64,000 bases of DNA, taken from NCBI GenBank assembly GCA_949285665.1, contig CASDYC010000001.1:5376-69375 (forward strand), given 5' to 3'. Each line of letters starts with the position of its first letter. Within the stretch, counting starts at the first letter, position 1. This stretch comes from an uncultured bacterium. GTDB taxonomy: Bacteria > Bacillota_I > Bacilli_A > RFN20 > CAG-826. The position numbers were made by a program, and so were the translations under genes. Under the pieces are notes generated by a model, which worked only from the letters and a program-made list of their open reading frames with translations, was not told the DNA's origin and searched no databases. This document shows positions 31,555 through 62,165 of the stretch, piece after piece.

Positions 31555-31584
31555 CCCCTTCCTTAAGTTGTAGGGCTTCCGCCC

Positions 31585-31822: not shown

Positions 31823-31856
31823 GCGTTCACCTAATGCAACATATATTTTTATTTTT

Positions 31857-32035: not shown

Positions 32036-32045
32036 CCCCTTCCTA

Positions 32046-32277: not shown

Positions 32278-32323
32278 GCGTATGCAAGCGTGTTTCCTTG
32301 CTTGCAATAATAGTTTAGCATAA
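32278..32323. repeat. conserved hairpin block (copy 2)
   Basis: GTATGCAAGCGTGTTTCCTTGCTTGCAATAATA is identical to copy 1. Confidence 0.5.
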
Positions 32324-32396
32324 TGAAACATTATTGCAATACCTTTTTTAAAAATATTTTAATTTTTATTTTTTATTACTGAAGTAATAAGATTTT

Positions 32397-32567: not shown

Positions 32568-32583
32568 GATTTTATATTCCCCC

Positions 32584-32662
32584 TTGACAAAATAAAAACC
32601 CGTGCCATATAATATTAATGAAAGATTTAGATATTAGAGTTTAGTCATCTAATATCTTTTTT
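32584..32662 (+). promoter_or_regulatory. promoter-like site plus intrinsic terminator mini transcription unit (unit 3)
   Basis: TTGACA, an 18-nt spacer and TATAAT at 32584-32613. GATATTAG/CTAATATC hairpin at 32630-32656 followed by T6. The loop shares GTTTAGTCATCT with unit 2. Confidence 0.4.
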
Positions 32663-32935
32663 ATTTCAATTAATATCTTACGTATTAGAATTAAAAGTAA
32701 AATCTTTTTCATTCTAACGCATCCCCCTTTCTAGTTTTAATCCTAGCTCAAGATTACTAACTAGCGGTTGCCTTATGATGCTATGACACGGGTGCAAGTA
32801 AGCTTTTTCCTTACATGCATTAATAGTATGACATAAGTATATACACATTACAATATATTTTTAATTATTTTTTTATTTTTTTATGCGTGTTTGCGTATGC
32901 TTTCGCGTGCGTGTGTGCGTATGCGTGATTATGTA

Positions 32936-33020
32936 TATATTCTTTTAGATTTATATTATTCTTTCAGATTTATATTATTCTTTGAGATTTATATATATTC
33001 TTTCATATTTATATTTTTAT
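32936..33020. repeat. four tandem ~20-bp iterons (tattctttNagatttata-like)
   Basis: attcttttagatttat / attctttcagatttat / attctttgagatttat / attctttcatatttat in a non-coding stretch. Confidence 0.5.
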
Positions 33021-33316
33021 ATTGTATTTTCTATATCTATTTTTCTTTTTATTTATATGGCAATTTCAAAAATCTTAATTTTTAAAGATGAAAAAGATTA
33101 GAATAAAAAAAGATAATTTGATTAGATTATAAAAGAGGCGATTATTAATTTTTCTATATCATATATCACAATCAAGGTGTTTGATTTTCTTATTTCTTTT
33201 CATCCATCCAGAGCGTTAAAAATTGGCTTAAAATCTTATATTTTTATGTGGTGTCTTTTTCTTGTATTGCTCACATATCTATAAAACACCGATAAAACCG
33301 ATATTTTATAAAGTTT

Positions 33317-33340
33317 GGGGGTTAATTTGGGGGTTAATTT
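33317..33340. repeat. 2x GGGGGTTAATTT, related to the att-site GGGGGTTATTT triplets
   Basis: gggggttaatttgggggttaattt. The same G5TTA(A)TTT motif occurs 3 times in attL, 3 times in attR and once at 61089-61100. Confidence 0.5.
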
Positions 33341-33416
33341 TAGATGATTTATTGGATGTTGCTTCCTCTGGAAGCAAAACAACAACAAAAAAATTTTTAA
33401 ATTTTCTATATATTGG

Positions 33417-33453
33417 AACCCCCACCCGGAAGGCAAATTCACCCCGGGGCGGC
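33417..33453. other. GC-rich palindromic island upstream of the terminase genes (candidate cos/pac region)
   Basis: aacccccacccggaaggcaaattcaccccggggcggc in otherwise about 20%-GC DNA, including the CCCCGGGG palindrome. Preceded by the GCTTCC tct GGAAGC hairpin at 33361-33375. Confidence 0.3.
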
Positions 33454-33658
33454 TAAAATGCAATTATTGTTCTTTTTAAAATTTTCCTTATTTTTTCCTA
33501 TTTTTTTAAATTTTATTATTTTTTTTATATTTTTTTAATGTAAACTTTTCTTGCATTTTTGTCAATAAATGTTGATATTTGTAAACTTTTATGTTTAAAA
33601 TGCAACATTTTATTTACTTTTTGCAAGTCATAATAAAAACTTGCTATTTTTAGTATAC

Positions 33659-33688
33659 TTGACATTAAGTTAGTTAATGATTATATTG
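33659..33688 (+). promoter_or_regulatory. late-operon promoter candidate
   Basis: TTGACA, an 18-nt spacer, then TATATT. The -10 element overlaps the first ATG of the ORF at 33677, so the transcript may be leaderless or start at the ATG at 33695. Confidence 0.35.
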
Positions 33689-41421: not shown

Positions 41422-43121
41422 AAATGGGATTTATTAATAGAAATTATCAACCTCCATTATTAAGTAATGAAGAAGAAAAAAGATTAAAAGTTAATCAATT
41501 TAAAGGTGTTGATTATACAACATCTCCTTTAGATATGTCTGATAATCGTTCTATTGATATGCTAAATTATGTAAGAAAAAATAACGTATTAGAAAAAAGA
41601 AACGGTATAAATGGTATCTTGAATTTTGAAAACCCAATATACGATCTATGGCGTTTTTTAGATTGTTTAATAATTCATACTGGAAGTGATATATACGTTT
41701 ATAAATTGGAAACTTTTGAGTTTTTAAAGTCATTTAAAGATTGCGTATTACCTAAAAAAATAATGGCTTTTGTAAGTGGTGAAAGACTTTATATATTAGG
41801 TGGTGTTAATTATTTAGTTTTACAAAAGAAAAAAAATAAAATAAGTTTAATTGGTCAAGATAGTGAGTTTGAATTATTAAAAGCATCTGATATTGCTTAT
41901 ATTCCAACTACAACTATTGGAATTAATCAAGAAAATTATGAAGGAATAACTTCAAGAACCACATTAGATGACCAAAATTTATTAGTTGATAGAGTTGTTA
42001 ACGAATTAATCGGTGGAAGTAGTATTAAAACTTACTATTTAAAAGATAACACTCCAAGTCAAGAAGTAGTAGAAGATAGCGATAAATTTGAAACACCAAA
42101 TATCATAACTACTTATAAACTTGATAGAACAATTGAAATTAATGATGAAACCTTGTCTTATAAACAACTTCCAAAAATTAATATTCGTTATAACTGGGAA
42201 GATATTATTAAAATTATGCTCAAATATAACGGAAGTGATAAAGATTTATATGAATTTGAAGAAGGTGCTACAATTTACCCAGTTACTACAATTTCTTTTG
42301 CAATTATATGTTATTTTGTAAATAACTATAAAAATTATAATCCAGAGCAAATTAAATTAATTGTTAATAAAAATGGAGTTAGTAATACATATACGCCTTT
42401 TATTAATTCAATGAATTATATAGTTCCAATTGACTTATTAACTGAATTAGGAACAGATAGAAAAAAGACATTAAGTTATACATTTAAAGCACGATATTTA
42501 AAAGAAGATGCAACTGCCGGTGATGAACCATTATCTGAAAGTAATACAATTACAAAAGATATAACACTAAGAAAATATAAACAAAGATATTATTTGAATT
42601 ATGGGGACACAGTGTTTTATTACCCAAGTAATGAATCTTTATTTTTAAATGGTTCCATTATTTTTTTAAATCTTGCTACGTCAAAATATAATGATTTTGA
42701 ATTAAAAAATATTGAGATTTATTACAAAGGAAAACAAATAAAGAATATTTCAGAAACTGGTTTAAATGCTAATGATTTTATATGGTCCAATGGAATTAAA
42801 AATGACGACCTTGAAAATGAAAGACATTTCCCATCAAATAATGTTTTTTGGATTTTTAATAAAAAAGAAAACTACGATATTGGTTATAAAAAAACTACGA
42901 TATTGCTCAAAATTTTTATTTCTTTTGCTGAAAACGATCCAAGACCTTACACAAATTTTTTTGACCAGTCAAATCCAAATACTTATATAAAAGTTAATGG
43001 TAAAAGAATTACATTTAAAACAAACTATCTTGGGAAAGATTTTGAGGAAAATTTAGATAATAAAAACTTTGAATGGTTAGTAAACGCCAATAAAGGCATA
43101 GGAGTTGAATACGATGACTAG
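41415..43121 (+). CDS. structural-module protein, hypothetical
   Basis: 568-aa ORF. Confidence 0.4.
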   Translation: MVKMGFINRNYQPPLLSNEEEKRLKVNQFKGVDYTTSPLDMSDNRSIDMLNYVRKNNVLEKRNGINGILNFENPIYDLWRFLDCLIIHTGSDIYVYKLETFEFLKSFKDCVLPKKIMAFVSGERLYILGGVNYLVLQKKKNKISLIGQDSEFELLKASDIAYIPTTTIGINQENYEGITSRTTLDDQNLLVDRVVNELIGGSSIKTYYLKDNTPSQEVVEDSDKFETPNIITTYKLDRTIEINDETLSYKQLPKINIRYNWEDIIKIMLKYNGSDKDLYEFEEGATIYPVTTISFAIICYFVNNYKNYNPEQIKLIVNKNGVSNTYTPFINSMNYIVPIDLLTELGTDRKKTLSYTFKARYLKEDATAGDEPLSESNTITKDITLRKYKQRYYLNYGDTVFYYPSNESLFLNGSIIFLNLATSKYNDFELKNIEIYYKGKQIKNISETGLNANDFIWSNGIKNDDLENERHFPSNNVFWIFNKKENYDIGYKKTTILLKIFISFAENDPRPYTNFFDQSNPNTYIKVNGKRITFKTNYLGKDFEENLDNKNFEWLVNANKGIGVEYDD

Positions 43122-45279: not shown

Positions 45280-45894
45280 ATGAAGATTAAAAAGTTATTA
45301 TTTGTTCCAATTCTAGCAAGTTCAATTTTGTTTTGTTCTAGTTTTAATTATGCCGACAATCAAGTCTTAAAAGCAGAAGAAACTACAACAAGTCAAGAAG
45401 TAGTTTATGAAGATAAAAACAACAATGGACTACCAGATGAATGGGAAGACTATTGGAGTGAAAATATATCAAAATCTTTCACGCTTGGAATGGTTATTAC
45501 TCTTGCTGTTAATATTTTATATGTTGCAGTTTCAAGTGCTTTAATGTTTTCAAAAACTAATAAATTCTCAAAAGGAACTAAATTATTTTCAAGCGAAACT
45601 CAAAAATTGCAAGATATAGCAAATAGTCAAAAAGAAGTAATTGAAAGTCAAAAATTACTCATTGAAAAACAATTAGAAACTATTAAAACATCACAAGAAA
45701 AATATGAAAAGCAATTAAAAAGTCAAACCGCCGAAAATGAAAGACTTAATCAACGTTTACAAATGATTACAAGTCAACTTAATTCTTATTCGACAACGAT
45801 GAAATCAATTGAAAAAATCGCTGAAAACCAACAAATAATCGCTAATAATTTGCCTTCTATGATTAGAAATGGAAGTTCCAAGGAGATTAAATAA
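45280..45894 (+). CDS. secreted/membrane-anchored coiled-coil protein
   Basis: Signal peptide, one TM segment and a Q/E-rich coiled coil. Confidence 0.35.
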   Translation: MKIKKLLFVPILASSILFCSSFNYADNQVLKAEETTTSQEVVYEDKNNNGLPDEWEDYWSENISKSFTLGMVITLAVNILYVAVSSALMFSKTNKFSKGTKLFSSETQKLQDIANSQKEVIESQKLLIEKQLETIKTSQEKYEKQLKSQTAENERLNQRLQMITSQLNSYSTTMKSIEKIAENQQIIANNLPSMIRNGSSKEIK

Positions 45895-46418
45895 TGACGA
45901 AAGAAGAAAAGAAAGAATATAAAAAGACTAATGAATATAAATTTAAACGTTCAAAAGTAATGAAGATTCTTTCAATATGCGAAGAATGGATTTCCATTTT
46001 ATCTCCATTTTGTGTAATGCTTGGCATCAATTGGAATAATTGGATTAAGACAAATGAAGATAAATATTCAATTGCGTTAGGTTTAGTATTAGCTCTTATT
46101 ATGACTGCTTTTGCAATTTATAAGAAGTTCAAATCCGAAATGAAACTTGGTTATTTATTTTGGATTGTTGGTTGGTGGGTTGCAACTTTATGTTTGTTAT
46201 TTTTGAACAAATTAATTCAAGATTTAGTTTATATCATGATTTACACGGGAATTGGCTTATTAGTTAGTTTAATTGGTAAATATGGAGAAAATTATTACAC
46301 GGCGTTAATGAAGCAATACGCACCAGAGGCTAAAAACAAAAATACAAATTCAAAATTAAGAAGTGAAGCATTTAAAGACTTATTAAGAAAGAAAGGAAAA
46401 GATGATGAAGAAATTTAA
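45894..46418 (+). CDS. polytopic membrane protein
   Basis: 174 aa with 3-4 TM helices. Confidence 0.35.
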   Translation: MTKEEKKEYKKTNEYKFKRSKVMKILSICEEWISILSPFCVMLGINWNNWIKTNEDKYSIALGLVLALIMTAFAIYKKFKSEMKLGYLFWIVGWWVATLCLLFLNKLIQDLVYIMIYTGIGLLVSLIGKYGENYYTALMKQYAPEAKNKNTNSKLRSEAFKDLLRKKGKDDEEI

Positions 46419-46620
46419 TAAAAAAGGACTAGCAATAGGAATTGGAACAATTTTATTTATCATAGTTGCTTTGATTTCTTTTGTAGTTGGAAGTTATTTA
46501 GTTGGCTGGGACATATTTTCTTGGTTTATTTCTCCAACTGCATATTTTGTGTATGGATTATTAGCAATAATCTTAATTGTTCTTATATATTTTTATGTAA
46601 TTAAAAGGAATAACGAATAA
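46402..46620 (+). CDS. holin-like small 2-TM protein
   Basis: 72 aa. Two hydrophobic helices and a charged C-terminus. Confidence 0.3.
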   Translation: MMKKFNKKGLAIGIGTILFIIVALISFVVGSYLVGWDIFSWFISPTAYFVYGLLAIILIVLIYFYVIKRNNE

Positions 46621-47717
46621 TGGCATTTAGTAAGTTAAAACAGTGGTTATTTAAACTAAATCTTAAAGTAGTCATAAATATGGCTGTCTTTGGTTTTGTC
46701 GTTATTTTAATTGTTATTTGCACGATTATTCAAGTAGGTTTAGACTTCACTAAAATCAATTGGGCTACTTGGGCTGCTAATTCACTTTTATTAATTGGAA
46801 TTACGATGATTGGACAAATTTCTTTTGAAGGAATTTTTACAAGTTATTTATATCAAAAAGATGGTTGGAAATATCAAAGGGCTAAAGATAAATATAAAGA
46901 AGTATTAGAAAGAGTAGGGGATTTTAGAATTTATTTATGGCAATATTTAGAATATTTTCAAAAACAAGAATTAAGAAAAGCAAGAATTGATATTTTATCT
47001 CGTTGTGGAATCGATAATCCTACTTTATTTGTTGATAATTTCAAACTTAATGAAATTAAAGAATTAGCAGAACATCCTATTTATAAAAAAGAAATAGATT
47101 ATACTTGGGACAAATTAACTGACTATCAAAAAGAAAGAGTTTATTATGCTTATTCAATTGAAACCGAAACAAAGAAAATAACTCACAGAGAAATGGGATT
47201 AATTATTGATAACCCAGGTGCTGATTATTATTTAAGTTTAGACAGTGAAATTGTAATGACTTCAATATTAAATGAACCAAAAATATTAAATAAAAAGATT
47301 AAATCAAATCAATTTTTTGGAAGAACTTTGAAAATTATAAGTTATGTAATTGTTTCAATTATCTGGTCTAGTTTTACAATCAGTGAAATAGCAAGTGGGA
47401 ATGATCCTGTTGTCTATATGAACTTATTTGCTCGTTTATTTGCCTTATTTGGGGGAGCATTAGGGGGAATTATGACTTCAATGGGGACTGTTAGTATTAT
47501 TGCAAGAAAGATTAATTCCAAAACTGAAGTTCTTAAAAACTTCCTTACTGCAATGGACTTAGAAGAATTCACACCTCAAAGTCAAAGTGATATAGCAAAA
47601 AGGCACTATGAAGATTATGTTAAAAAACAAAAAGAAGCAGTTGATAGCGTTGTTGATATAAAAGAAGAAGATAAACATAAATATTTAGAAGGAGGTGTAA
47701 TTAATGGCAGAAATTAA
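46620..47717 (+). CDS. polytopic membrane protein
   Basis: 365 aa with several TM helices. Confidence 0.35.
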   Translation: MAFSKLKQWLFKLNLKVVINMAVFGFVVILIVICTIIQVGLDFTKINWATWAANSLLLIGITMIGQISFEGIFTSYLYQKDGWKYQRAKDKYKEVLERVGDFRIYLWQYLEYFQKQELRKARIDILSRCGIDNPTLFVDNFKLNEIKELAEHPIYKKEIDYTWDKLTDYQKERVYYAYSIETETKKITHREMGLIIDNPGADYYLSLDSEIVMTSILNEPKILNKKIKSNQFFGRTLKIISYVIVSIIWSSFTISEIASGNDPVVYMNLFARLFALFGGALGGIMTSMGTVSIIARKINSKTEVLKNFLTAMDLEEFTPQSQSDIAKRHYEDYVKKQKEAVDSVVDIKEEDKHKYLEGGVINGRN

Positions 47718-49725: not shown

Positions 49726-50607
49726 ATGGCAACAAAGACAGTGGAAATACCAACTAAATTTAAAACTATAAATAATCAAGAAATTACTGGAGAAGGTAAT
49801 ATTACAATTGAAGCAACTGGCGGAATGACACAAGGTGCATCTTTTTGGGGTGGTAGTTTTTATCAAACAAGTGCTAGTTATAGAATTTATACAATTACTT
49901 GTAGTGAAGAAAAAAGACCTTTAATTAATGATTTAGTGTTAGATCAATCAAGTGGTAATGTTTATAAAATAACTTCCAGTTCCTATTATGCTACTGCTAC
50001 AACTTATGTAAGAGTTAGATGTTCAACAACTTCTTCATTTTCTTTAAAAGGAGCAACTGGAAGCACGCCTACAATTAGTGCAACTGCAACTGTTAGTAAT
50101 ACTACCGGGACTCCAAGTGTTACAGTTACAAAATCAGGGACAACTACAAATCCAAGTTTTAAATTTGCATTTAGCGGATTAAAAGGAGAACCAGGAGAAG
50201 GGGGTAGTTCAGAAGATATAATTACAATTAAGAAAACTAATTTTTCTATATATGGAGGAGAAACAACTTATGTCGCTCTTCCTGATGACTTTTCAGTTTG
50301 TAAGATTTATTCAGACTATAATTTTAACTTAACTTATGAAGGAGAACAATTTCAAGGTTCTGTAAGACTTGCTTCTTCGACTACTAGTGGGACTGTTAGT
50401 AATCTCATTGACTTAAGTGGTGCAATATATTTTGAAATAACGATTATCGAAAATGGTGGTGTAAGACTTACCATTGGTAAAAAAGTAAATAATCAAATAA
50501 GTGTTTATGAAGAAATCATTGCAAATTCAAGAGGTTTTAAATATTTAGAATTTAATTTTACTTTTACATCCAGTAATCAATGTGGAGGTTATATGTTTTA
50601 TGTATAA
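49726..50607 (+). CDS. fibre/receptor-binding-like protein with a short collagen-like GxY stretch
   Basis: S/T-rich, with GLKGEPGEGG. AAAGGAG RBS. Confidence 0.4.
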   Translation: MATKTVEIPTKFKTINNQEITGEGNITIEATGGMTQGASFWGGSFYQTSASYRIYTITCSEEKRPLINDLVLDQSSGNVYKITSSSYYATATTYVRVRCSTTSSFSLKGATGSTPTISATATVSNTTGTPSVTVTKSGTTTNPSFKFAFSGLKGEPGEGGSSEDIITIKKTNFSIYGGETTYVALPDDFSVCKIYSDYNFNLTYEGEQFQGSVRLASSTTSGTVSNLIDLSGAIYFEITIIENGGVRLTIGKKVNNQISVYEEIIANSRGFKYLEFNFTFTSSNQCGGYMFYV

Positions 50608-51127
50608 GTTTTTAGTAGGTTCACAATTATTAGGTTTAACAAATTCAAAAGATATTGATTATTATGTAATTTTAGAAGAAGGCGAAACATTAAATAAAGA
50701 AACCGGGGTTGATTATCACGTTGTTGATTGGGAAAAGAGATTAAAAGTTTTAACTTTTCAAGACACTAATCCTAATTATTGTATTTTTTGTTATCAACAT
50801 GATAAACAAATTAATCCAAGTTTCGCAGAGTTTTTCGAATATAATTTATTAGATTATAAAAAAGAATTAATAGATTTAATTGATAATATTATTAAAAATA
50901 AATTACTTAATTTTAATAATAAAATCACAACAACAAATAACTGTTGTTGCAAGATTATTTATCATATTGCTTACAATATTTTCATTTTAGAAAATAATTC
51001 TCCAATAATTACAGCTGAACAAAAAGAAATAATTCAACAAATTCATGACAGAGTTATGCCAATTGAATATTTAGATACACTTAAAAATAAATTTTATCAA
51101 ATAAAGGAGGCGTATTATGGCAATTGA
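50600..51127 (+). CDS. minimal nucleotidyltransferase-fold protein (pol-beta superfamily motif)
   Basis: VGSQLLGLTNSKDIDYYV matches GS, 10 residues, then DID. The probable start is the ATG at 50600 after GGAGG. The ORF track starts at 50582. Confidence 0.4.
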   Translation: MYKFLVGSQLLGLTNSKDIDYYVILEEGETLNKETGVDYHVVDWEKRLKVLTFQDTNPNYCIFCYQHDKQINPSFAEFFEYNLLDYKKELIDLIDNIIKNKLLNFNNKITTTNNCCCKIIYHIAYNIFILENNSPIITAEQKEIIQQIHDRVMPIEYLDTLKNKFYQIKEAYYGN

Positions 51128-52073
51128 TGAATACAAAAATACTAACAATAAATCAACTTCAAATCCTTATGATGATCAACTTGAAGAATTATTAAAAAAT
51201 AAGGATTATGCTGGTGCTTTAAATCTTGAAAAATATAACTATAGATTGAAGCAAGGTGAAGCAAATAATTTATCTTCTATGAGCGAAGAAAGTCAAATGG
51301 CTTTAAGTGAAAATAAACAAAATTATCAAGATACAACTAATCAAAATTATGTAAATAATGAAATTAGAAATAAATATCTTGGTGATAATTTAAAATACCA
51401 GGGAATTACGCAAGGTGGAGAAGAAGCGTATTTAAAAGCAAATCAAACCAACGCTTATGAAACTGCTCAAAATAATGCTTATTTAGATTATTTAAATAGC
51501 GAAAAAGAAATTAGACAAGGTGAGATAGATGCTCAAAACGAACAATTAACTTCTTTAATTGGCGCTGCAACTTCAATGGATGAAGTTTATAGTTATTTAA
51601 AAAATTATGGTTATGTTGATGAAAATAATAACTATACTGCAAAATGGCTTAATATGAGTGAAGCAGATAAGGCTTATTTTTCAAGTATTGTAACTAATGC
51701 TGAAGCAAGAATTAATAGTGCTGCAACTCCATACGCTGATTTAGTGGATGGCAAACAACAATTTAATTCTGAAGCAGTTGGAAATCTTGGTTATATGCTC
51801 AAAAATGGAAATTATTCAAGCGAATCAATATCTGTAGGTATGGCTTCTGAATATCAAGCAATGGTTAGATATCAAGGTAATTTTAGAAATGGAACTGCTA
51901 TTAAATTATCAAGTGGCGGTGCTAATGCTGGAACTGCTTATTTAATTTATATTGATGGAGCATACTATCAAATAAGTGAAGATGAATATAACCAATTTGG
52001 AGGCGATAGATATAGTTTCTCATATGGTAGTGGTAGCGGAGATACATCTAGTGTAAGAATACAAAAACAATAA
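51117..52073 (+). CDS. N/Q/Y-rich tail-module protein, hypothetical
   Basis: 318-aa ORF. Confidence 0.35.
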   Translation: MAIDEYKNTNNKSTSNPYDDQLEELLKNKDYAGALNLEKYNYRLKQGEANNLSSMSEESQMALSENKQNYQDTTNQNYVNNEIRNKYLGDNLKYQGITQGGEEAYLKANQTNAYETAQNNAYLDYLNSEKEIRQGEIDAQNEQLTSLIGAATSMDEVYSYLKNYGYVDENNNYTAKWLNMSEADKAYFSSIVTNAEARINSAATPYADLVDGKQQFNSEAVGNLGYMLKNGNYSSESISVGMASEYQAMVRYQGNFRNGTAIKLSSGGANAGTAYLIYIDGAYYQISEDEYNQFGGDRYSFSYGSGSGDTSSVRIQKQ

Positions 52074-52093: not shown

Positions 52094-55000
52094 ATGGCTG
52101 ATAGAAATACTTATTTAAAAATGATGCTTAATAATGGAAAAACTCAAAATTCGAGCATTCCATATGTTAAGGATTATGTTGCAAATTTGGGCTTAAACGA
52201 TGAAGATATCGCTGATTTTCTTATTAAAAATAATGAAATAAACGCAAAACAAATATTAACTGAAAGTCAACAACAACTCCAAACACAAGATCAATCATTT
52301 AATCAAGAAAAAGAAGAAGATAAAAACTGGTGGCAAAATATCGTTGATGGTATGGCTTCAATTGGTAATTCTGTTATTGATGGCATTATGAACTTTGCAG
52401 ATGATATTGGAGACTTCTTTATATCAGTTGGCGATTGGATGATGGGTGGCAATAATGAATGGGCTGATGAAGCAATAAATTATGATTGGCAAGCACAAGT
52501 GACAAATGCTTTAAATTTTATGCAACCATTACTTCAAGTAGTAGATGTTGTTCAAAACTATAATGATTGGGCACAAAGTATTTGGCAAGGTGGAGATACT
52601 TCAAGAGATTATTTAAATGGTATTGTAGAAGGAACTTGGACAGATAATGATTTTGGTAAATTTTTAAGAGATGCTGCAAATTCAATTGGTTATATGCTTC
52701 CTACAATTGCAGTTGGTGTATTAACTGGTGGATCTAGTGCCGCAGCACTTTCAACTATGGGAGTAGTTGCTGGTATGGGACAAACTTCTGATGCTTATCA
52801 AGAAAATAATAATATGGGACTTGCTTTATTAAGTGGTATTGTAGCAGGTGGAATTGAAGCTGGAACTGAAGCAATAGGTGGCTTTATTCCAGGCAGTAAA
52901 ACAATAACAAAAACAACAATTAAAGCTCTTGGAAAACAAATGTTAGAAGAAGGTGCTGAAGAAGTTGTAAGTGGATTTTTACAACCAGTTGTCGATAGTA
53001 TTGCAAAAGGAAATGCAGAACCTTGGTTTGATGAAAATGGACAATTTGTATATTTTTCTCCAGAATTTTGGTTTACTGGGGAAGATAGCGTTGCGAGACA
53101 AGGAGCGTTAGGTGCTTTTACTGGTGGAGTTTTTGGTGGTGCAAATATTGTTCAAAATAGAATTAAATATGGGAAAGCTGGACAACAATTTGGTCAAGCA
53201 TATCAAGAATTTATCGAAACTAGAAATGAAGCCAGAGAATTAAAAAGTAAAAACAAAAGCACAGAAGCAATAGAACAAAAATTAGGAGAAGCAAGTGTTT
53301 ATTTAGCAGAAAAAGCAAATGAGTTAAAAACAGCAATTGAAAACGGAACTATTAGCAATAGACAAGTTAAAAACCTTGGAGAAATGTTACATAATCCAAC
53401 TTCTAATAGAAATTTATTAGCAGAAAATTTAAACGAAAATATAAATAAATTAAATAATATTACAAATTTAAATGAACATATATTAAGAGATTTAGTAAGT
53501 GATTTTAATATTTCAAATAATTCAAACTTTAAATTAGATGTAGTTGATGATTTAAAAGATGTAAATGGTAATAGTGTAAATGCTCAATTTAATGAAAATA
53601 CAAATACTATAAGTCTTAATTCATCTATTTTAGATAATAATGCATATTCAGTATTAGGTCACGAATTATTAGCTCATGGTGTTTTAGATAATATATTAAC
53701 TAACTCAAATACAAGAAGTATAGTTTTTAATTTGGTTAATAATGACACTGAATGGGTTAATCAAAATAAACAAACAATTTTAAAAGAATATAACACAACT
53801 GAAAACTCTGAAATATATAAAAGTGAATTAGTTGCTAATTATTTACAAGAAAAATTAATTAATAATAATTCTTTAAGTGATTTAGAGCTATTAGCAAGCA
53901 ATAAAGGTGTTTTTAAAGAATTTATAAATTCTGCTAAATTAATTATGGAAAACACTAATTCTAGTAAATTAAAACAACAAATTAGAAAAGCAGTTAGACA
54001 ATTTGGAAAAAGCAATTATAGAGTTAATTCGATTGTTTTAAAAATGCTTAATGATAAAAAATTAAACAACAAAGAACAAGAATATTACGACCAAAATAAA
54101 ACATTATTTGATACATATTTTAGCATTATTAATGGTGGATTACTTCAAGAAACAAATGGTGAACTAAAAATTGCTTATAGTAAAGATTTAAACGATGTAG
54201 TAGATGAATTAATTGAAAATAGCGATAAAATTGAAACACGTATCGAAAGTGATAATCAAGGTGAATATGTTGTTTATCAAAATCTAGATTTAAACAACTT
54301 TAATAGAAACGAAAGAAGAATAATATTAAGAAATTATTTAAAACAAAAATTCACAAGTGATTATATTTTCCATATTTCAAGCGATAATACAGAAGCAACC
54401 TTAACAAGTGATGGTCGAGGTAAAATGTCAGATCATGGTTCAAGTGCAGCTGCAAGCGCTAAAATTGAGTTAGAAAATATTTTAAAAATCGCTAAAAAAA
54501 TAAAAGTAGAAGATAGTTATAAATCTAATGAAGATTATACTTATACAACATATAATTCAAGAATATTAATTGGCGAAACAATGTATTCTTTTGATATTGA
54601 TTTAAAAAATTTAAAAGATGGTAATAGAATATATGATATTAAAAATGAAAAAAGCACTCCTGTCAATGGCAGTCTTACAAATGCAGACCTACACCCATCA
54701 GGCAGTGCTTTTCTTAATGATAGTATCTCACAAGAAAATAATTCTGTCAATAGTATTGATAATTTAAACGAAAGGGGTAATAATAATTTATATGAAAGAA
54801 CAGATGAGTTTAGAAGATTACAAGAAGAAAGTAGAAAATTACTTGAAAAATTCCAAAGTGGAGAACAAACTTATAAACAATTGGATGAAAGTATACGAGA
54901 AAGATATACAAGATGCATTCAACAAGCACTGGAAAGCGGAAGAAATAGCAATTCCTATGATTTTAGGTTATTAAAATCTTCTAAAAATACCAAATTTAAC

Positions 55001-58000
55001 ATAACAAATAATATAAATAATAATTTATTTCATGATGCATTTGAAACTATAAAACCTTATATACAACAAAATGAATTAGTTGATTTACACGATGATTATA
55101 CTAATTGTCAATGTTTTTTAAGTTCCGATGGATTACAAGGTTTTGCTATTGAACCAAATGGAAATTTAATTAGTGTTTTTAATGCTGATACAAATAAGAG
55201 AGGATTTGTTGAAGCAATAAGTAATTATGTAAAAGAACATGGTGCTACACATTTAGATTGTTATGGCTATTTAGCAAATTATTATAATAAAGTTTTAGGT
55301 TTTAAAACTGCATCTATAATGGATTATAACATGGAGTATGACCATCACAATATTGCAAGTAATTATAACAATCCACAAGTTGCATTTATGGTTAATACAA
55401 ATGAAAATGTTGAAACAAAACACTTTAATAAAGACCAATATGATGAAGCAGTAGAGTATCAACAATCATTTATTAATAAAGAAAAAATTAAATATTCTAG
55501 GAAATTGAATAATTCACAATTATCTAATGAAGAAAAAGAAAATTTAGCAAAAAAATCATATAATAATTTAAAGAAATTTTCAGTAAACGAAAAGAGAATA
55601 TTGAATAATAATTATAATACAACGTTGAATTCTTTTGACGAAGTAAAACAATATATTAAAGACGCAATTAATGGGAAAGATATTTCAAGGTATGGATTAT
55701 TAGGCAAAATAAGTAAAAATTTGAGCGATAAAATCTTTGAATATACAAATTTAAATTTAAAAGATTATAATTTAGCATTTAATAAAGATAATTTAAAACA
55801 TATATATAAAAGACATGTCGAAAATTTAGCTAATCAAATAAAAATTAATATAGATGACATATATTTATTACCATACTTATTAGAAAATTCAAATGATATA
55901 ACAATTGAAAAAATGAAAAATGGTGATAAATATATTAAATTTATTACAAATTTTAGTGATGAATATATAATTTTTACTTTAAGTTCTAATAAGAATAAAA
56001 GATTAACATTAAAAACTATTTATATAAGAAAAAAAGGAGCTGGCTTCCCAACGGGCAATGCTGATTACCTTAGTAATCCCCCAGCCCTTACGTCCAAAAC
56101 GGATGATGGGGCTTCGTCTCCTTTTACTACTATTAGTTTTACACAAAAAAGTTTTGGTGTCAATAATTTAGATAAAAATACTGCAGTTCAAAAACACAAT
56201 AATAAGTCAAATAATAATACTAAAAACGAAGTTGACATTAATGTTTTAGAAACCAATAAAGCAAATAAAGTTAAAGAAAATGCTAATAAACAATTATGGC
56301 AAAAAGTTATTAGTTTTAAAGATGCAAAAATTGCTTATAATTCTTTAATTGATTTTATTAATAATTCACTTAACATAGATTTAACAGTTAAAAATAAAGA
56401 AACAAAAATTAGAGCCTTATTTGATAGTTATAATGTAAATGAAATAAATAATACTTTAAACGATTTTTCAAAAGACTTATTAAATTCAAAAGTTTATCAA
56501 GGCGTTGAAACGACTTTAAGAGATGTTTTTGAAGCAAACGATTTTGACACTGTCAAACTTGAAAATGCTATGACTAAATCTCTTAAACATGTTTTAGATA
56601 ATAAAGCAAAAACAAGTGAAACAACAAAAATATTTGATAATTTACAATCTCAATTACTTAAAGCAGTTGATTTAATTAATAGATATAAAAATAGAGCAAG
56701 ACAATTTGCTAGTCTTTATAAAAAAGTTGAAAACATTAAAAAGCAATTAAAAATAGAAAATAATAACACCAAATTAACAGATATTAAACTTGATGAAGTT
56801 AACTTACTTAAATATTTAGTAAGCGGAAGAGTATTTACAAAAGATGGTGGAATATCTGGAACTTGGAGAACTAGATTTAATGATCTAATGAAAGAAGATG
56901 TTAATTATTTTTCATCTTTAAGAAATAGTGTTTTTAATGAAAATGGTGAACTTAATAAAGCAATTGAAACTTTTGAATATTTAGGAAATTCATTTGATTT
57001 AAGAAGAAAACAACAAAGAACTTTAAATATAGAAGAAGCTGATGCTTTAATTCAAGCATTTAATAGTGTTTTAAGTGCAATGAACGACTATAAAAACGGC
57101 TATTATGAAAAAGTAGAAAAATTATCAAATGATTTATATTCAGAGCAAAGCGAAATTATAGAAGCAAATAAAAATAAAAGTTTTACATTGTCAAAAATTA
57201 ATCAAATAATATCAAGAGTATCAAGCCCACTTACTAATTTAGCTCTTTATTTTGGTGGTGAAAACACGCACATGTATAAAGAATTAATTGGTAATATTGA
57301 AAATAATTATGAAAGATATTTATTTGACCAATCCGCTTTAAATACTTCGTTAATTAAGAAATTAGAAGGTATTTCTAAAAAAGGTATATTAACTAATCAA
57401 ACTAAGGTTATAAAGAATTTTAAGGGTTTAAAACGCTTAAATAAATGGCATTTATATTCGATGTGGTTAAACTTAAAGGCTGAAAGTAATTTAGCAAGAG
57501 TTAGCGAAAAAGGATTTACACTAAAAGATAAAGTTGGCCAAGTTCAACATATTAATTATGATACAGATTTATTAAGCGATATTGAAAGTCATTTAGATGG
57601 AGTAGAAATTGAGCAACTTCAAGCTTTACTTGATTTTTATAATGTTGAAATTAAAGACTATATTAAAAAGGCTCAAACTAAAATTGATGGATTTAGTAAT
57701 GTTTTAAGTTCAACATATTACCCACAAATTACAAGTAAGAGTGAACTTAAAGGAAATTTAACTGGTGATGAACCATTATTTTTAAGAGATAATGGACAAT
57801 TTAAAAACTTAAAAGCTAGAACAGGAGTTATTACAAGTTTAGATTTAGTAAATCCTCTTGAGCTAGTGAGAAGTTATATTGATAGTGCATCAAGATATTC
57901 AAATCTTACACAAGCTGAAAGATTACTTAATAGAACATTAAATAAAAATATTATTGTAAATAAAGAAACTACATCACTAAGAAAATTATTTAAAGAAAGA

Positions 58001-59851
58001 TATGGAAATGAATTTGAAAAGCAACTTACTTCTTTCTTTAATAAATTAACTGGGAACTTGAATATAGTCAGTGATTCATTAATTGCAAAAATTGGTGGTA
58101 TGAGTTCTGTTGCAATGCTTGGTTTTAATGTCTCAACTGTCTTTAAACAACTTGGTTCTTTACCAATGGCTGGAAATGTTATTGGTTTTAGAAATTTAAT
58201 AAGTGGTTTAAGAGGCAATTTGAGAATTAAAAAACTTCATAATCAATTATATGAAAGTAATGGTTATTATCGTAATAGAGTTGATGAAAATGGCTACGTT
58301 TTTGCAAATACAATGGCTAGTGATGTTGTTTCAAAAGCATCAAATATTAAGAAAAAAATAATTGATTTTTCACTTAAAGGCATGCAAGTCATGGACCAAT
58401 ATGTTGTTCTTCTTTCATATCAAGGAGCGCAAGATTATGTCTATAGACTTCATAATAAAGATATTAATTATAAGCCTGGTAGTGAACTTAATATTAAAGA
58501 AGCAAGCAAAGTTATGAATAAGATTTTACTACAAACTCAATCTAATGCTTATGCCATTTCAACTTCAATGTTAAGAAGTGGCGAAATGGGAGATTTGATG
58601 CGTTATACTTTTGGTGTTTTTGGAAGTGATAATCAAAATAAAATTAGTGAATTATATCAACAATTTGGAACAATAATTAAACAAAGTAATTATATAAAAG
58701 CATTAAAAAAGAAACTTGCAAGTGAATTATCTCAAAGTGATAAAACGCTTTATGGAGCAAGATTAAAAGAAGCTCAATCTAATTATAGGAATGCTGTTAA
58801 AAGATTAACAATGCATAGTATTCCTAATCTTGCAATAGGTGGAGTTATTACATCACTTGTAGCAGTAGTAATGAAATACTTACTTGGTAGAGATAAAGGC
58901 GAAGAATGGGATGATTATTTAATGGAATTTAGTATGGATGCTTTTGTTGATTGGATTCCATTTGTTGGAACTATTTATAATGCATTCCAATATGATGATG
59001 GTAATTTCTCTCCAATTCCATTTGAGCAATTTATTACTTTATTTGAAGTAATTTCTAATTGTTTAACTAAACTATCAAGTGGTAATTTAACTCAAAGAGA
59101 AATAATAACTCAAATTACAAAACTATTTACAGCATTGAGTATGACAGCTGGTATTCCAACTAAAAATGTAACTAACTTAATAATTGGTATTACTGATAAA
59201 TTTTCTGCTCAAACTGCTTTAAATATGCAAAGTTTATTATATGGGTATTCTCAATCTTATTACACTAGACTTATGAAAGAAAGTTTAGAAAGAAAAGATT
59301 ATACAAATTATGCTATATATTACAAAACTAATGCTGAATTATTCAAAGTTAACAAATTAAGTGACAAAGTTTTAAATAAGATAATTAATTTAAAAAAGAT
59401 TGGCTATGATGTAACCTTAAAAAATGTTCCAGATACATTAAAAGATGAAAATGGTGAAGAATTTGTGCTAACTGACAAACAAATTACTGAATTTAGAGAA
59501 GTATATTCACTTGCAAATCAAAGTGCTGTAAATGTTTTAGAAGGTGTTAGATTTAATAAGTTATCAAGTCAAGACCAAGCAGCAGTTTTAAGAAAAGTTT
59601 TTGATGCATATTATGATTATGCAAAAAGTGTAGTTAGTAAAACGGATCCAACAAGTAGAACAGCAAAAGTAATTGCTATGACTGATGGAAAAATTAATAT
59701 ATCTAAATACATTTCTTATGCTCAGGATTTATTAAATATCGATGGCAAAGACAAAAAAGAACAAATAATGAAAAAAATGAAACAATATTATTTAAGTGAT
59801 TTTGAAAAAGATATTGTCTTATATTTAGTTGGTTATGATGTAGAATTGTAA
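52094..59851 (+). CDS. giant virion-associated multidomain protein (polyvalent-protein or tape-measure-like), 2585 aa
   Basis: AAGGAG RBS. Glycine-zipper hydrophobic segment near residues 200-270. A mid-protein segment NLKHIYKRHVENLANQI...YIIFTLSSNKNKRLTLKTIYIRK resembles PBECR/LPD-type toxin modules. C-terminal TM-like helices. Confidence 0.45.
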   Translation: MADRNTYLKMMLNNGKTQNSSIPYVKDYVANLGLNDEDIADFLIKNNEINAKQILTESQQQLQTQDQSFNQEKEEDKNWWQNIVDGMASIGNSVIDGIMNFADDIGDFFISVGDWMMGGNNEWADEAINYDWQAQVTNALNFMQPLLQVVDVVQNYNDWAQSIWQGGDTSRDYLNGIVEGTWTDNDFGKFLRDAANSIGYMLPTIAVGVLTGGSSAAALSTMGVVAGMGQTSDAYQENNNMGLALLSGIVAGGIEAGTEAIGGFIPGSKTITKTTIKALGKQMLEEGAEEVVSGFLQPVVDSIAKGNAEPWFDENGQFVYFSPEFWFTGEDSVARQGALGAFTGGVFGGANIVQNRIKYGKAGQQFGQAYQEFIETRNEARELKSKNKSTEAIEQKLGEASVYLAEKANELKTAIENGTISNRQVKNLGEMLHNPTSNRNLLAENLNENINKLNNITNLNEHILRDLVSDFNISNNSNFKLDVVDDLKDVNGNSVNAQFNENTNTISLNSSILDNNAYSVLGHELLAHGVLDNILTNSNTRSIVFNLVNNDTEWVNQNKQTILKEYNTTENSEIYKSELVANYLQEKLINNNSLSDLELLASNKGVFKEFINSAKLIMENTNSSKLKQQIRKAVRQFGKSNYRVNSIVLKMLNDKKLNNKEQEYYDQNKTLFDTYFSIINGGLLQETNGELKIAYSKDLNDVVDELIENSDKIETRIESDNQGEYVVYQNLDLNNFNRNERRIILRNYLKQKFTSDYIFHISSDNTEATLTSDGRGKMSDHGSSAAASAKIELENILKIAKKIKVEDSYKSNEDYTYTTYNSRILIGETMYSFDIDLKNLKDGNRIYDIKNEKSTPVNGSLTNADLHPSGSAFLNDSISQENNSVNSIDNLNERGNNNLYERTDEFRRLQEESRKLLEKFQSGEQTYKQLDESIRERYTRCIQQALESGRNSNSYDFRLLKSSKNTKFNITNNINNNLFHDAFETIKPYIQQNELVDLHDDYTNCQCFLSSDGLQGFAIEPNGNLISVFNADTNKRGFVEAISNYVKEHGATHLDCYGYLANYYNKVLGFKTASIMDYNMEYDHHNIASNYNNPQVAFMVNTNENVETKHFNKDQYDEAVEYQQSFINKEKIKYSRKLNNSQLSNEEKENLAKKSYNNLKKFSVNEKRILNNNYNTTLNSFDEVKQYIKDAINGKDISRYGLLGKISKNLSDKIFEYTNLNLKDYNLAFNKDNLKHIYKRHVENLANQIKINIDDIYLLPYLLENSNDITIEKMKNGDKYIKFITNFSDEYIIFTLSSNKNKRLTLKTIYIRKKGAGFPTGNADYLSNPPALTSKTDDGASSPFTTISFTQKSFGVNNLDKNTAVQKHNNKSNNNTKNEVDINVLETNKANKVKENANKQLWQKVISFKDAKIAYNSLIDFINNSLNIDLTVKNKETKIRALFDSYNVNEINNTLNDFSKDLLNSKVYQGVETTLRDVFEANDFDTVKLENAMTKSLKHVLDNKAKTSETTKIFDNLQSQLLKAVDLINRYKNRARQFASLYKKVENIKKQLKIENNNTKLTDIKLDEVNLLKYLVSGRVFTKDGGISGTWRTRFNDLMKEDVNYFSSLRNSVFNENGELNKAIETFEYLGNSFDLRRKQQRTLNIEEADALIQAFNSVLSAMNDYKNGYYEKVEKLSNDLYSEQSEIIEANKNKSFTLSKINQIISRVSSPLTNLALYFGGENTHMYKELIGNIENNYERYLFDQSALNTSLIKKLEGISKKGILTNQTKVIKNFKGLKRLNKWHLYSMWLNLKAESNLARVSEKGFTLKDKVGQVQHINYDTDLLSDIESHLDGVEIEQLQALLDFYNVEIKDYIKKAQTKIDGFSNVLSSTYYPQITSKSELKGNLTGDEPLFLRDNGQFKNLKARTGVITSLDLVNPLELVRSYIDSASRYSNLTQAERLLNRTLNKNIIVNKETTSLRKLFKERYGNEFEKQLTSFFNKLTGNLNIVSDSLIAKIGGMSSVAMLGFNVSTVFKQLGSLPMAGNVIGFRNLISGLRGNLRIKKLHNQLYESNGYYRNRVDENGYVFANTMASDVVSKASNIKKKIIDFSLKGMQVMDQYVVLLSYQGAQDYVYRLHNKDINYKPGSELNIKEASKVMNKILLQTQSNAYAISTSMLRSGEMGDLMRYTFGVFGSDNQNKISELYQQFGTIIKQSNYIKALKKKLASELSQSDKTLYGARLKEAQSNYRNAVKRLTMHSIPNLAIGGVITSLVAVVMKYLLGRDKGEEWDDYLMEFSMDAFVDWIPFVGTIYNAFQYDDGNFSPIPFEQFITLFEVISNCLTKLSSGNLTQREIITQITKLFTALSMTAGIPTKNVTNLIIGITDKFSAQTALNMQSLLYGYSQSYYTRLMKESLERKDYTNYAIYYKTNAELFKVNKLSDKVLNKIINLKKIGYDVTLKNVPDTLKDENGEEFVLTDKQITEFREVYSLANQSAVNVLEGVRFNKLSSQDQAAVLRKVFDAYYDYAKSVVSKTDPTSRTAKVIAMTDGKINISKYISYAQDLLNIDGKDKKEQIMKKMKQYYLSDFEKDIVLYLVGYDVEL
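54647..54716. repeat. 70-nt palindromic element inside the giant ORF, about 92% identical to 61649-61718
   Basis: GAAAAAAGCACTCCTGTCAATGGCAGTCTTACAA is identical in both copies. Terminal inverted repeats AAAAGCACTCCTG / CAGGCAGTGCTTTT. Confidence 0.6.
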
Positions 59852-59920: not shown

Positions 59921-60475
59921 ATGATGTTAGATAAAATTACAAGAGATAAAGTCGATTATTTAGTTAGTAACATTTATCAATTATATAATTTAAATATTAA
60001 CGAGCCTTTAAATATCTATTCTTTTGCACAACAACTTGATTTTGTTTTTGCAAATTTAAAAGAAGAGGTATTAAAAGATGTTAAAGGTATTATTTTAATT
60101 GTTCCTGGAGATAAAAAAATAAAAAAAGAATTCGGCTCAGACAAATTAATAGGTTTAAATACTAATTTATCTATGGAAGATAATAACTTAATTATCGCTC
60201 ATGAATTAGGACATTATTTTTTAGATTCAAAAAGAGGGAATGTTTATTTTGCTCATAAATTTACAGATAATAGTGTAGAAGTAAGTAAAAGAAGCGAATT
60301 AGTTGCCAATTACTTTGCTGCCGCATTGTTATTACCTAAAGAAACTTTCATTAATTTATACAATAGTTCAATTGATAAAAAGAATTTTGTTTCCGTTATT
60401 TCAAATAAATATATTGTTCCAAAAAAATGTGTAGAAAGAAGAATTGAAGAATTAATAACAGATGAAACAAAATAA
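59921..60475 (+). CDS. ImmA/IrrE-family zinc metallopeptidase
   Basis: HEXXH motif in IIAHELGHYFLD. 184 aa. At the prophage right end, so it would be adjacent to int/cI in the circular form. Confidence 0.65.
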   Translation: MMLDKITRDKVDYLVSNIYQLYNLNINEPLNIYSFAQQLDFVFANLKEEVLKDVKGIILIVPGDKKIKKEFGSDKLIGLNTNLSMEDNNLIIAHELGHYFLDSKRGNVYFAHKFTDNSVEVSKRSELVANYFAAALLLPKETFINLYNSSIDKKNFVSVISNKYIVPKKCVERRIEELITDETK

Positions 60476-60935
60476 TTTAGATAATTACCTTAATCTTTTT
60501 GTTGAACCAGAAGAAAAAGATTTTGATAAGAAATTGGAAGATTATATAGAGGTCTTTTATAATTATTACAATAAAACATCTAAGTCAAAGATATTTTTCC
60601 AAATGGCTTTTGGTATTTTTATTCCATTATTAATGATATTATTAACGATTTGTTTAATCGTTTTAATGTATTTTCTTTTTGTTAGCGAATTAGATTATGC
60701 TGAAACTATTACAATTTGTATCTCGTCAATTACTGGCTATGTGGTCTCAATAGTTAGTTTATTTAAAATTATTGTTAATTATATTTTTAATAAAAATGAT
60801 TTGAAAGATTCAAATAAAATTTTGAACAATATTATTAAACATAAAGAACGAGATAAAGTGATTGACGATAATATTTCGCAAATCTTAAATTCTATAAATT
60901 TAAAAGATAGCGAAGAAAATAACATTAAAAAATAA
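60462..60935 (+). CDS. small membrane protein, hypothetical
   Basis: 157 aa with 2 TM helices. Confidence 0.3.
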   Translation: MKQNNLDNYLNLFVEPEEKDFDKKLEDYIEVFYNYYNKTSKSKIFFQMAFGIFIPLLMILLTICLIVLMYFLFVSELDYAETITICISSITGYVVSIVSLFKIIVNYIFNKNDLKDSNKILNNIIKHKERDKVIDDNISQILNSINLKDSEENNIKK

Positions 60936-61225: not shown

Positions 61226-61334
61226 TTCTCGCATGGTGCTCCAAATGATATAAAATGCCGATTTTATCGGCTTTTTTTATTCTTTGGGGGTTATTTGGGG
61301 GTTATTTGGGGGTTATTTGTTTTTTACGTTGACA
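61226..61334. repeat. attR: 109-bp direct repeat containing the 3' 18 nt of tRNA-Gly
   Basis: See attL. ttctcgcatggtgctcca, then the terminator, 3x GGGGGTTATTT and gttttttacgttgaca. Confidence 0.85.
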
Positions 61335-61648: not shown

Positions 61649-61718
61649 GAAAAAAGCACTCCTGTCAATGGCAGTCTTACAATTGCAAACCCACACCCAT
61701 CAGGTAGTGCTTTTCTTA
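61649..61718. repeat. second copy of the 70-nt palindromic element, in the non-coding region right of attR
   Basis: About 92% identical to 54647-54716. Flanked by an A-run and a T-run, so it could act as a terminator. Confidence 0.6.
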
Positions 61719-62165
61719 GTTTCAGTATTGCATACGTAAATAGTGCCGTCAATATAAAAGATTGAAATATAGATAAAAAAATATAAAAAAACTTATCTTT
61801 AGAAATGATTTTATATAAATTATTATTATCAAAAAAATATAAAATGATAAAAAATTAGTTTTGAATATGTTTAAAACATAAGAATTGTTAAATAAAAATT
61901 TTGGATAAATTTAATAAATAGTAACGTTTACACAAAATTATAATTTATTATAAATTTTTTATATTTTATTCCCTAAATTTTTAAAAAATGAATTAATGAT
62001 TGATTTTAAAAAAGTAAAGAAAGAAAAAAATATAGTTAAAAATCTCATTGTTTTTAGATTAATTGTTATTTTTTTGTAAGCGTTTACATTTTTTTCTTTA
62101 CTTAATTTTTAAAAAAATATAAACTATTAATGAAAGTTATGACAACGTTATCATAAGGAGGACTT

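Follow-up and report, generated by a model that had tools for sequence, protein, structure and literature searches.

A giant late-operon protein of a Bacillota prophage as a probable polyvalent delivery chassis with exchangeable cargo domains

Is the longest virion gene of a phage by default the gene for a tape measure protein (TMP)? This question is raised by a window of 64,000 nucleotides of DNA from an uncultured bacterium (GTDB lineage Bacteria; Bacillota_I; Bacilli_A; RFN20; CAG-826; assembly GCA_949285665.1, contig CASDYC010000001.1, forward-strand positions 5,376 to 69,375), in which the late operon of a prophage ends with an open reading frame (ORF) of 2585 aa. A first-pass annotation of this DNA had described the product as a giant virion-module protein, possibly polyvalent and injected rather than a plain tape measure. 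Our results support this view through the presence of PBECR3 and LPD3 domains, the swapping of cargo among relatives and the lack of any TMP feature, whereas injection itself is reached by inference. We consider it probable that the giant protein is a polyvalent protein serving as a delivery chassis, which would be packed in the head and injected with the DNA, and not a ruler of tail length.

The giant ORF (52094..59851, plus strand) begins with ATG and has an AAAGGAG ribosome-binding site 8 nt 5' of its start. The N-terminus of its product, MADRN.YLK, is kept family-wide, even in relatives of only ~20% identity, and because of this conservation the start is taken to be correct. Thus, the 2585-aa protein of the first-pass annotation stands as a real gene call. 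The public data contain an identical protein (P0001), and 50 homologues were found. BLAST mapping divides the protein into three zones, namely a conserved N scaffold (aa 1-700), a block-swapped centre, and a conserved C scaffold (aa 1359-2585), with the following features:

52094..54193, plus strand: N scaffold, aa 1-700, kept in all family members and always N-terminal
52646..53143, plus strand: Gly/Ala-rich hydrophobic 'glycine-zipper' region, aa 185-350, the best conserved part of the N scaffold
53516..54013, plus strand: candidate zincin-like metallopeptidase (MPTase), aa ~475-640, with HELLAH at aa 523-528 (nt 53660-53677) and E578 (nt 53825-53827)
54323..54634, plus strand: LPD3 domain (PF18798), aa ~744-847, cargo slot 1
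54644..54793, plus strand: inter-module linker, aa 851-900, with the junction motif SISQENNSVN; it holds the DNA that had been named a '70-nt palindromic element' (54647-54752)
54794..55489, plus strand: module B, aa 901-1132, an uncharacterised alpha/beta domain (phrog_2563), cargo slot 2
55490..56035, plus strand: PBECR3 module (PF18812), aa 1133-1314 (Pfam match aa 1205-1314), cargo slot 3
56036..56167, plus strand: second linker, aa 1315-1358, with the degenerate junction motif ISFTQKSFGVNN, aligned with the linkers of P0007/9/10/16/24
56168..59848, plus strand: C scaffold, aa 1359-2585 (1227 aa), all-alpha; conservation begins at aa 1359

The central zone holds the cargo. PBECR3 (PF18812) was detected with 35.1 bits in the whole protein and with 40.5 bits in a segment search (gathering threshold, GA, 30), and the match covers profile positions 2-110 of 115. 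Seven homologous PBECR3 modules all retain the two histidines of the KHxYxRH motif (H1236 and H1241) and the Thr/Ser residue of LK(T/S)xY (T1308), in agreement with the published His + Ser/Thr active-site configuration of PBECR3. Thus, the resemblance to KHxxxRH-type PBECR nucleases that had been noticed by eye is borne out, and the module is predicted from its sequence to be a metal-independent endoRNase with an intact His/Thr active site. The first-pass annotation had placed a PBECR/LPD-like segment in a single mid-protein stretch. The peptide that it quoted (aa 1225-1313) indeed lies inside the PBECR3 match, but the LPD domain is a separate one, located at aa ~744-847. This LPD3 domain (PF18798) scores 33.9 bits against a GA of 27 on the segment aa 691-900 and spans profile positions 9-114 of 114, although it is not listed in the whole-protein Pfam scan and in P0004 the orthologous block stays below GA, at 24.3 bits. 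In the AlphaFold2 (AF2) model the LPD3 region is beta-rich, with a predicted local distance difference test score (pLDDT) of 70-81.

Between LPD3 and PBECR3 lies module B, in which phrog_2563 (unknown function) matches aa 979-1072 and the model reaches pLDDT 73-85 for aa 930-1050. A 25-sequence profile of module B found no Pfam or PDB relative. Its homologues (n=72) are mostly solo proteins of 290-400 aa. Two of these, of 333 aa and 51% identity, are encoded at L011 5317-6318 and L012 5586-6587, in each case beside a ParB_N/N6_N4 methyltransferase gene and, in L011, also near a resolvase gene, which is a mobile-element context. A by-eye GFAIE..GNLVSVF...GF motif raised the possibility of a GNAT acetyltransferase, but this was not supported, as there was no Pfam or PDB match and no GNAT among the Foldseek matches.

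Comparison of the homologues shows that the cargo modules between the conserved scaffolds have been exchanged by recombination. Slot 1 holds either LPD3 or a PBECR3-type module, the latter in P0007/8/10/14/16/24; slot 2 holds module B as an option; and slot 3 holds PBECR3 or unrelated modules of 320-380 aa. Cargo and scaffold similarity are discordant: in P0002 the scaffolds are 97-99% identical whereas module B is only 62% identical, and in P0011/P0012 module B is 84% identical though the scaffolds are only 57-71% identical. At the DNA level, identity to L001 is 93-100% over the scaffolds, falls to 42-79% over aa 750-1100 (LPD3 and module B), and is 100% over aa 1101-1350 (the PBECR3 block). 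Relatives with 70-97% identical scaffolds range from 2383 to 2705 aa and differ in length purely by cargo content. Among 18 diverse family members surveyed with Pfam, ART-PolyVal was found in five, MuF_C, Zeta toxin and LPD3 in three each, and PBECR5 and PBECR3 in two each. By its predicted domains, the giant protein falls within the class of polyvalent proteins as defined by Iyer et al. 2017 (PMC5512222), with at least two disparate domains in a prophage virion-gene context, and the occurrence of zeta toxin, ART-PolyVal, MuF_C and PBECR5 in the same slot of its relatives fits this definition.

The scaffolds on either side of the cargo have no Pfam, PHROG or PDB-sequence relative. Identity over the N scaffold is 55-97% in close and mid-distance relatives and 27-32% in distant ones. 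The N-terminal glycine-zipper hydrophobic segment that the first-pass annotation had pointed out was located at aa 198-261, with hydropathy peaks at aa 198-225 and 243-261 and a G+A fraction of 0.29 in aa 201-300. The surrounding region retains 33% identity even to the most distant relatives and contains an EEGAEE motif; across this family of ~20% identity P203, G213, G248 and P298 are invariant and G262 is nearly so. Further along the N scaffold, H523, E524, H528 and E578 are nearly invariant family-wide, and the peptidase motif is HExxxH in close and mid-distance relatives and the canonical HExxH in the most distant. In the AF2 model three strands (aa 480-509) are followed by the HExxxH helix (aa 517-535), with E578 on a later helix (aa 573-590), at pLDDT ~60-79; this predicted layout of aa 480-590 is that of the zincin topology. 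An HEXXXH MPTase variant clade exists among the metallopeptidases of polyvalent proteins (Iyer et al. 2017, PMC5512222).

The C scaffold is 70-99% identical in close and mid-distance relatives and 25-31% identical in distant ones, and it contains hydrophobic segments at aa 1991-2013 (nt 58064-58132) and aa 2246-2264 (nt 58829-58885; Kyte-Doolittle 2.05). Its AF2 model (pLDDT 68.5; predicted template modelling score, pTM, 0.55) consists of ~55 helices, mostly of 10-30 residues and a few of ~50, with small hairpins. An exhaustive HMMER search with the C scaffold retrieved 445 representative clusters, defined at 50% identity, at E <= 1e-3, and 336 at E <= 1e-10. Nearly all of these clusters are 1800-3900 aa long, and the match lies at their C-terminus. 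A Foldseek search of the PDB found no relative of the C scaffold (best E 0.22), whereas the predicted viral structures of BFVD gave 65 matches at E <= 0.001 (best E 3e-32, TM 0.53). Except for one unsplit entry, each BFVD match listed is the second or third piece of a giant protein from an uncultured virus, in keeping with the C-terminal location of the HMMER matches. Most of the named ones are labelled by their cargo, that is, as nuclease, PolyVal ADP-ribosyltransferase, MuF-C, LPD, N-acetyltransferase, UDP-GlcNAc kinase or type I restriction enzyme, and none of the 65 carries the name tape measure. The first-pass annotation had named as evidence against its proposal a protein of tape-measure-like coiled coil with no toxin or enzymatic domain; what was found instead is PBECR3 and LPD3 above Pfam thresholds together with a zincin-type HExxxH...E motif.

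The modules are separated by stretches that appear disordered in the AF2 models (aa 682-712, 856-901 and 1051-1140, the last with short better-scored interruptions). The linker at aa 851-900, with pLDDT <50 at aa 856-901, includes the stretch encoded by the DNA that had been described as a 70-nt palindromic element carried in frame. The repeat does exist and is in frame: 54647-54752 is 85% identical to 61649-61754, with a ~70-nt core that is nearly identical and 13-nt inverted ends AAAAGCACTCCTG/CAGGCAGTGCTTTT. However, the pair is palindromic at its ends only. A miniature mobile element of the MITE (miniature inverted-repeat transposable element) kind inserted in the giant gene would account for the two copies, their inverted ends, a GC content above that of the surroundings, and the folding of the in-gene copy, which is better than that of its shuffles (z = -3.07). 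We nevertheless hold such an insertion to be very improbable and reject it in favour of linker-coding DNA with a gene relic as its second copy. The in-gene copy codes for the linker KSTPVNGSLTNADLHPSGSAFLN, and since every close relative in the alignment has a linker of about equal length there, the element is no insertion. In most close relatives this polar linker is followed by an ISQNExxVN-type motif, after an LPD3 or a PBECR3 slot-1 module alike, while the peptide of the in-gene copy itself is shared only with P0004-6. The fold of the downstream copy is unexceptional (z = -1.12), and no further copies were found in the window, in L001 or in metagenome contigs by exact 21-mer search. The downstream copy lies within this feature:

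61649..61852, plus strand: decayed giant-gene fragment (linker region), outside attR, translating to EKSTPVNGSLTIANPHPSGSAFLS...

It encodes a related peptide over 68 aa (blastx E 1e-8 to aa 852-918), and because this protein-level match runs past the element, the downstream copy is, on sequence grounds, a decayed fragment of a homologous giant gene. Perhaps this relic was left by an earlier, now decayed prophage at the same tRNA-Gly site, or it is a leftover of recombination. A recombination joint is one possibility for the better conservation of the 70-nt core than of its flanks.

The prophage itself, in which the giant gene takes up 17% of the length, is ~45.5 kb long and integrated at tRNA-Gly(ccc). 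It lies in an AT-rich window (G+C ~21-30% per 2-kb block) and has these landmarks:

15615-15688: tRNA-Gly(ccc), the integration target; the 100-nt repeat begins inside its 3' end
15671-15770, no strand: attL, a 100-nt direct repeat 91% identical to 61226-61325, overlapping the 3' end of tRNA-Gly(ccc)
17254-18360, minus strand: tyrosine integrase
45894..47717, plus strand: membrane proteins of 174, 72 and 365 aa in the structural module, with hydrophobic sequences
51117..52073, plus strand: 318-aa gene, directly 5' of the giant gene and co-conserved with it
61226-61325, no strand: attR, the direct-repeat copy at the right prophage end, 1.4 kb 3' of the giant gene

The late operon runs from TerL (34041), portal (36189) and the major head protein (MCP, 39119) through unrecognisable proteins, which include two beta-rich ones (568 and 723 aa) and four membrane proteins, to the fibre-like genes (48429 and 49726), a 181-aa gene, the 318-aa gene and the giant gene. 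The giant gene is co-directional with the preceding late gene, from which only 20 nt separate it, and has its own ribosome-binding site. As the first-pass annotation had stated, it is the last gene of the structural module, after the fibre-like proteins, and it holds this place in five independent contexts, the window and L001-L004, among them relatives with 23-27% identity. Between it and attR there are just two genes, one for an ImmA/IrrE-type peptidase and one for a small membrane protein; in L002 its neighbour is the integrase, and in L001, L003 and L004 host genes, with DUF3800 also in L001. In relatives the giant gene is again accompanied by genes for the 723-aa protein, the 318-aa protein and two of the membrane proteins (174 and 365 aa). 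Matches to the 174-aa and 365-aa proteins were found in L002 and L004 (E down to 9e-24), and the 318-aa protein, for which family searches gave no match, is 30% identical (E 1e-7) to the product of the gene directly upstream of the giant gene in L002. The 174-, 72- and 365-aa membrane proteins are candidate partners that may be co-ejected. The 723-aa neighbour has only a weak match to a 'possible adhesin', 4wa0 (E 1.6e-4). Neither the giant protein nor the portal nor the 723-aa protein had a match among deposited phages, and of two genome scans the first gave no match and the second only three distant loci.

Several further observations were made along the prophage. To its left lies a host tRNA cluster (Trp, Asn, Glu, Thr, Gly; 10366-15688). 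The left end (15811-17130) encodes a helix-turn-helix protein and a DUF3644/EC042_2821 restriction-endonuclease-like protein, and the right end (59921-60935) the ImmA/IrrE (Peptidase_M78) protein and the small membrane protein as accessory genes. Directly 5' of the packaging genes, ~2.4 kb (31244-33677) contain no ORFs of at least 80 aa and had no Rfam match; this stretch carries three 107-nt repeats ~500 nt apart (31411, 31893 and 32433) and a 43-nt repeat with an internal hairpin (31779-31821 and 32280-32322). Tandem TTGGGGGTTA(T/A)TT motifs occur at 15718-15767, 33304-33353 and 61272-61321, that is, in both att-side repeats and just 5' of the packaging genes, and possibly serve the phage as a site of regulation or packaging. 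The structural module encodes four predicted membrane proteins (204, 174, 72 and 365 aa) at 45280-47717. Two blocks, 50094-51093 and 42094-43093, are only 69-73% identical to L001 while identity elsewhere is 94-98%; they take in the 181-aa gene and the greater part of the 568-aa protein, about 60% from its C-terminal side, and are further variable cassettes of the late operon. By eye, the 181-aa gene gives the impression of a DIDYYV nucleotidyltransferase-like motif. In L003 (4852-5937) and L004 (4820-5872), RVT_1 reverse transcriptase genes lie among the fibre-like genes 5' of the giant gene, an arrangement that resembles diversity-generating retroelements targeting receptor-binding proteins.

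The recognisable virion genes suggest a short-tailed virion, which we consider likely. No family of tail tube, sheath, tape measure, Dit or Tal was detected among the operon proteins, nor was an adaptor or nozzle identified among them. The head genes match phrog_2, phrog_156 and phrog_1357. According to a published table, these three families also occur in AP-20-A, a podovirus related to the podoviruses SV21 and API480. SV21 has relatives of both the MCP (E 4e-9) and the small gene that follows it (E 3e-4), in syntenic positions, and TerL shares ~24% identity with its counterparts in phi24B and Vibrio phage 1.205.O. Each of the cultured phages phi24B, Vibrio phage 1.205.O and SV21 encodes a giant protein in a comparable place:

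Vibrio phage 1.205.O (NVP1205O_20): 3130 aa, last late gene, with LPD38
Stx phage phi24B (gp47 / vb_24B_48): 2807-2811 aa, last late gene, at the prophage end opposite the integrase, with LPD38, LPD5, LPD1 and MuF_C
Paenibacillus podovirus SV21 (L013): 1630 aa, function unknown, last structural gene, 2723-7615, minus strand, just before the holin/amidase genes

Homology of the scaffolds to any of the three could not be demonstrated, and they are analogues of the same class, not orthologues.

Two other roles of the giant protein have to be weighed against that of a head-packed delivery protein. It might be the TMP of a siphovirus-like phage that carries effector domains, being threaded in the tail tube, setting its length and leaving first. 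Enzymatic domains are known from TMPs, which enter the host on ejection, and the giant protein is the only very long, largely alpha-helical one in the structural module, with hydrophobic Gly-rich segments like those of many TMPs; moreover, the tail genes are unrecognisable, so that the virion type is not proven. We regard this role as unlikely, however. Neither the whole protein nor any of eight segments matched a TMP family in Pfam or PHROGs (e.g. PhageMin_Tail, TP901), and no tail tube or sheath was seen among the recognised operon families, whose head members are common to podoviruses. The gene comes last, after the fibre-like genes, with no Dit-/Tal-like genes behind it in the five contexts, and the two upstream ORFs start ordinarily with ATG/GTG and belong to no G/GT chaperone family (no explicit frameshift search was made). 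At the ~1.5 Å per residue of the tape-measure rule, 2585 aa would imply a tail of ~390 nm. Length shifts with cargo among relatives of nearly the same scaffold, and family-wide from 1800 to 3900 aa. Finally, the C-half model is a multi-helix assembly and not one extended coiled coil, and its BFVD relatives bear other names.

Less likely still is a non-virion accessory ('moron') toxin, expressed late or in the lysogen and serving, for example, superinfection exclusion or release at lysis. Such a role would suit the toxin-like cargo domains and the extreme prophage end, where accessory genes gather and where the neighbours are the ImmA/IrrE peptidase and membrane-protein genes, or DUF3800 in L001. 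But the close coupling of the gene to the late gene before it, and the fact that relatives of 23-30% identity retain both the late-operon-end position and the same partner genes before it, speak against it, as does the physical presence of the analogous phi24B protein in virions. Moreover, a simple toxin role leaves 1900 aa of conserved scaffold unexplained.

The reading as a head-packed, injected polyvalent protein also has points that weigh against it. The putative peptidase had no match to Pfam MPTase-PolyVal even at E <= 10, and its Foldseek match to anthrax lethal factor was not significant (E 0.92); because of these results, the HExxxH...E domain is a probable rather than a proven MPTase. 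The AF2 model of the N-terminal and middle part is of low confidence (pLDDT 54.8), and the two models, N/middle and C half, leave out aa 1141-1399, including the PBECR3 fold. On the side of the virion, the portal has no BLAST relative in deposited phages, and the 568-aa neighbour, tried as an Hc3/nozzle protein, was rejected (hhalign probability <1%, no PDB match). Against phi24B gp47 and the Vibrio giant protein only peptidase-like segments match (HEILAH, HEIIHH; hhalign E 0.0017 and 0.019, low probability); the match of the gp47 N-terminus is marginal (BLASTP E 0.001), and the scaffold gives an hhalign probability of 2.5%. Delivery by injection, then, is what the genomic context and the precedent of gp47 would suggest by analogy. 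In the podovirus phi24B, gp47 is abundant in virions by proteomics and absent from the cryo-electron microscopy density, and the authors of the 2026 preprint propose that it is an encapsidated ejection protein (bioRxiv 10.64898/2026.04.10.717836).

Taken as a head-packed delivery chassis, the giant protein would be a late product, enclosed in the capsid of a virion that is probably short-tailed, and would leave through the tail together with the DNA or before it. The host membrane might be engaged by the hydrophobic segments of the scaffolds, perhaps aided by the small co-conserved membrane proteins, and the built-in peptidase could cut at the linkers and free the cargo, in the manner of the polyvalent-protein peptidases that Iyer et al. 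2017 (PMC5512222) propose to cut a polyprotein into units. The freed cargo would attack host or defence RNA in the first minutes of infection, favouring the phage. A broader and rather doubtful extension is that the family is a standardised effector-delivery chassis of short-tailed temperate phages of Bacillota and others. In such a chassis a plug-in bay would sit between a membrane-active N scaffold with a peptidase and a C scaffold competent for channel formation or packaging, the linker with ISQNExxVN would be both a recombination joint and a peptidase cleavage site, and the 174-, 365- and 318-aa partners would make up the rest of a Gram-positive 'ejectosome'.

A prediction of 2017 saw polyvalent proteins as injected 'Swiss-army-knife' effectors, and direct virion evidence has come only recently with phi24B gp47. 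The class is thus already known; what this locus brings to it are scaffolds that no catalogue contains, a clean scaffold-bay-scaffold layout and a module B that also occurs on its own. The locus adds a large, essentially metagenome-only lineage of 445 clusters in which the delivery parts are cleanly separable from the payload. Near-identical phages that differ only in payload are a natural experiment on effector exchange under host-defence pressure, and the defined scaffold boundaries can be used for asking what packaging and ejection need. Module B, for which over 70 solo homologues exist, may represent a new type of toxin or anti-defence domain. For annotators, the locus is a caution that the longest virion gene is not by default a tape measure gene.

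Among known systems, the polyvalent proteins of Iyer et al. (PMC5512222) are alike in joining disparate domains in one polypeptide encoded among prophage virion genes, here PBECR3, LPD3 and the HEXXXH MPTase candidate, with ART-PolyVal, MuF_C, zeta toxin and PBECR5 in relatives, and in the extensive mosaicism of orthologues, as for the Helicobacter jhp1044 proteins. The giant protein differs from that set in its ~380-aa Gly-rich hydrophobic N-terminal region and its ~1230-aa helical C scaffold, which match no Pfam LPD or other family; PMC5512222 mentions no transmembrane segments, no fixed scaffold-bay-scaffold layout and no last-gene position. TMPs share with it great length, richness in helices, Gly-rich hydrophobic segments, early ejection and sometimes enzymatic domains, and differ in gene position, TMP families, tail-tube/Dit/Tal partners, the cargo-driven variation of length seen here and the multi-helix model.

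A further related system is that of the podovirus ejection proteins (T7 gp14-16, P22 gp7/gp16/gp20 and N4 vRNAP with gp51/gp52). They leave the head, in which they are packaged, and build a conduit, and some of them carry an enzyme (N4 vRNAP, the virion RNA polymerase; T7 gp16 transglycosylase). These proteins are likewise large, mostly helical, late and equipped with hydrophobic segments, and small membrane-active partners are encoded nearby. They differ in that the giant protein has no sequence or fold match to any solved one, that they carry one fixed enzyme instead of interchangeable conflict effectors, and that the host here belongs to the Bacillota and has no outer membrane. Another counterpart is phi24B gp47, also a giant polyvalent protein encoded by the last late gene at the prophage end opposite the integrase, with a peptidase-like HExx(x)H segment and in a phage whose TerL is related to that of the window (24% identity, E 6e-24). 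It differs from the giant protein described here in having its own cargo set and in serving a phage of a Gram-negative host, with a periplasm to span.

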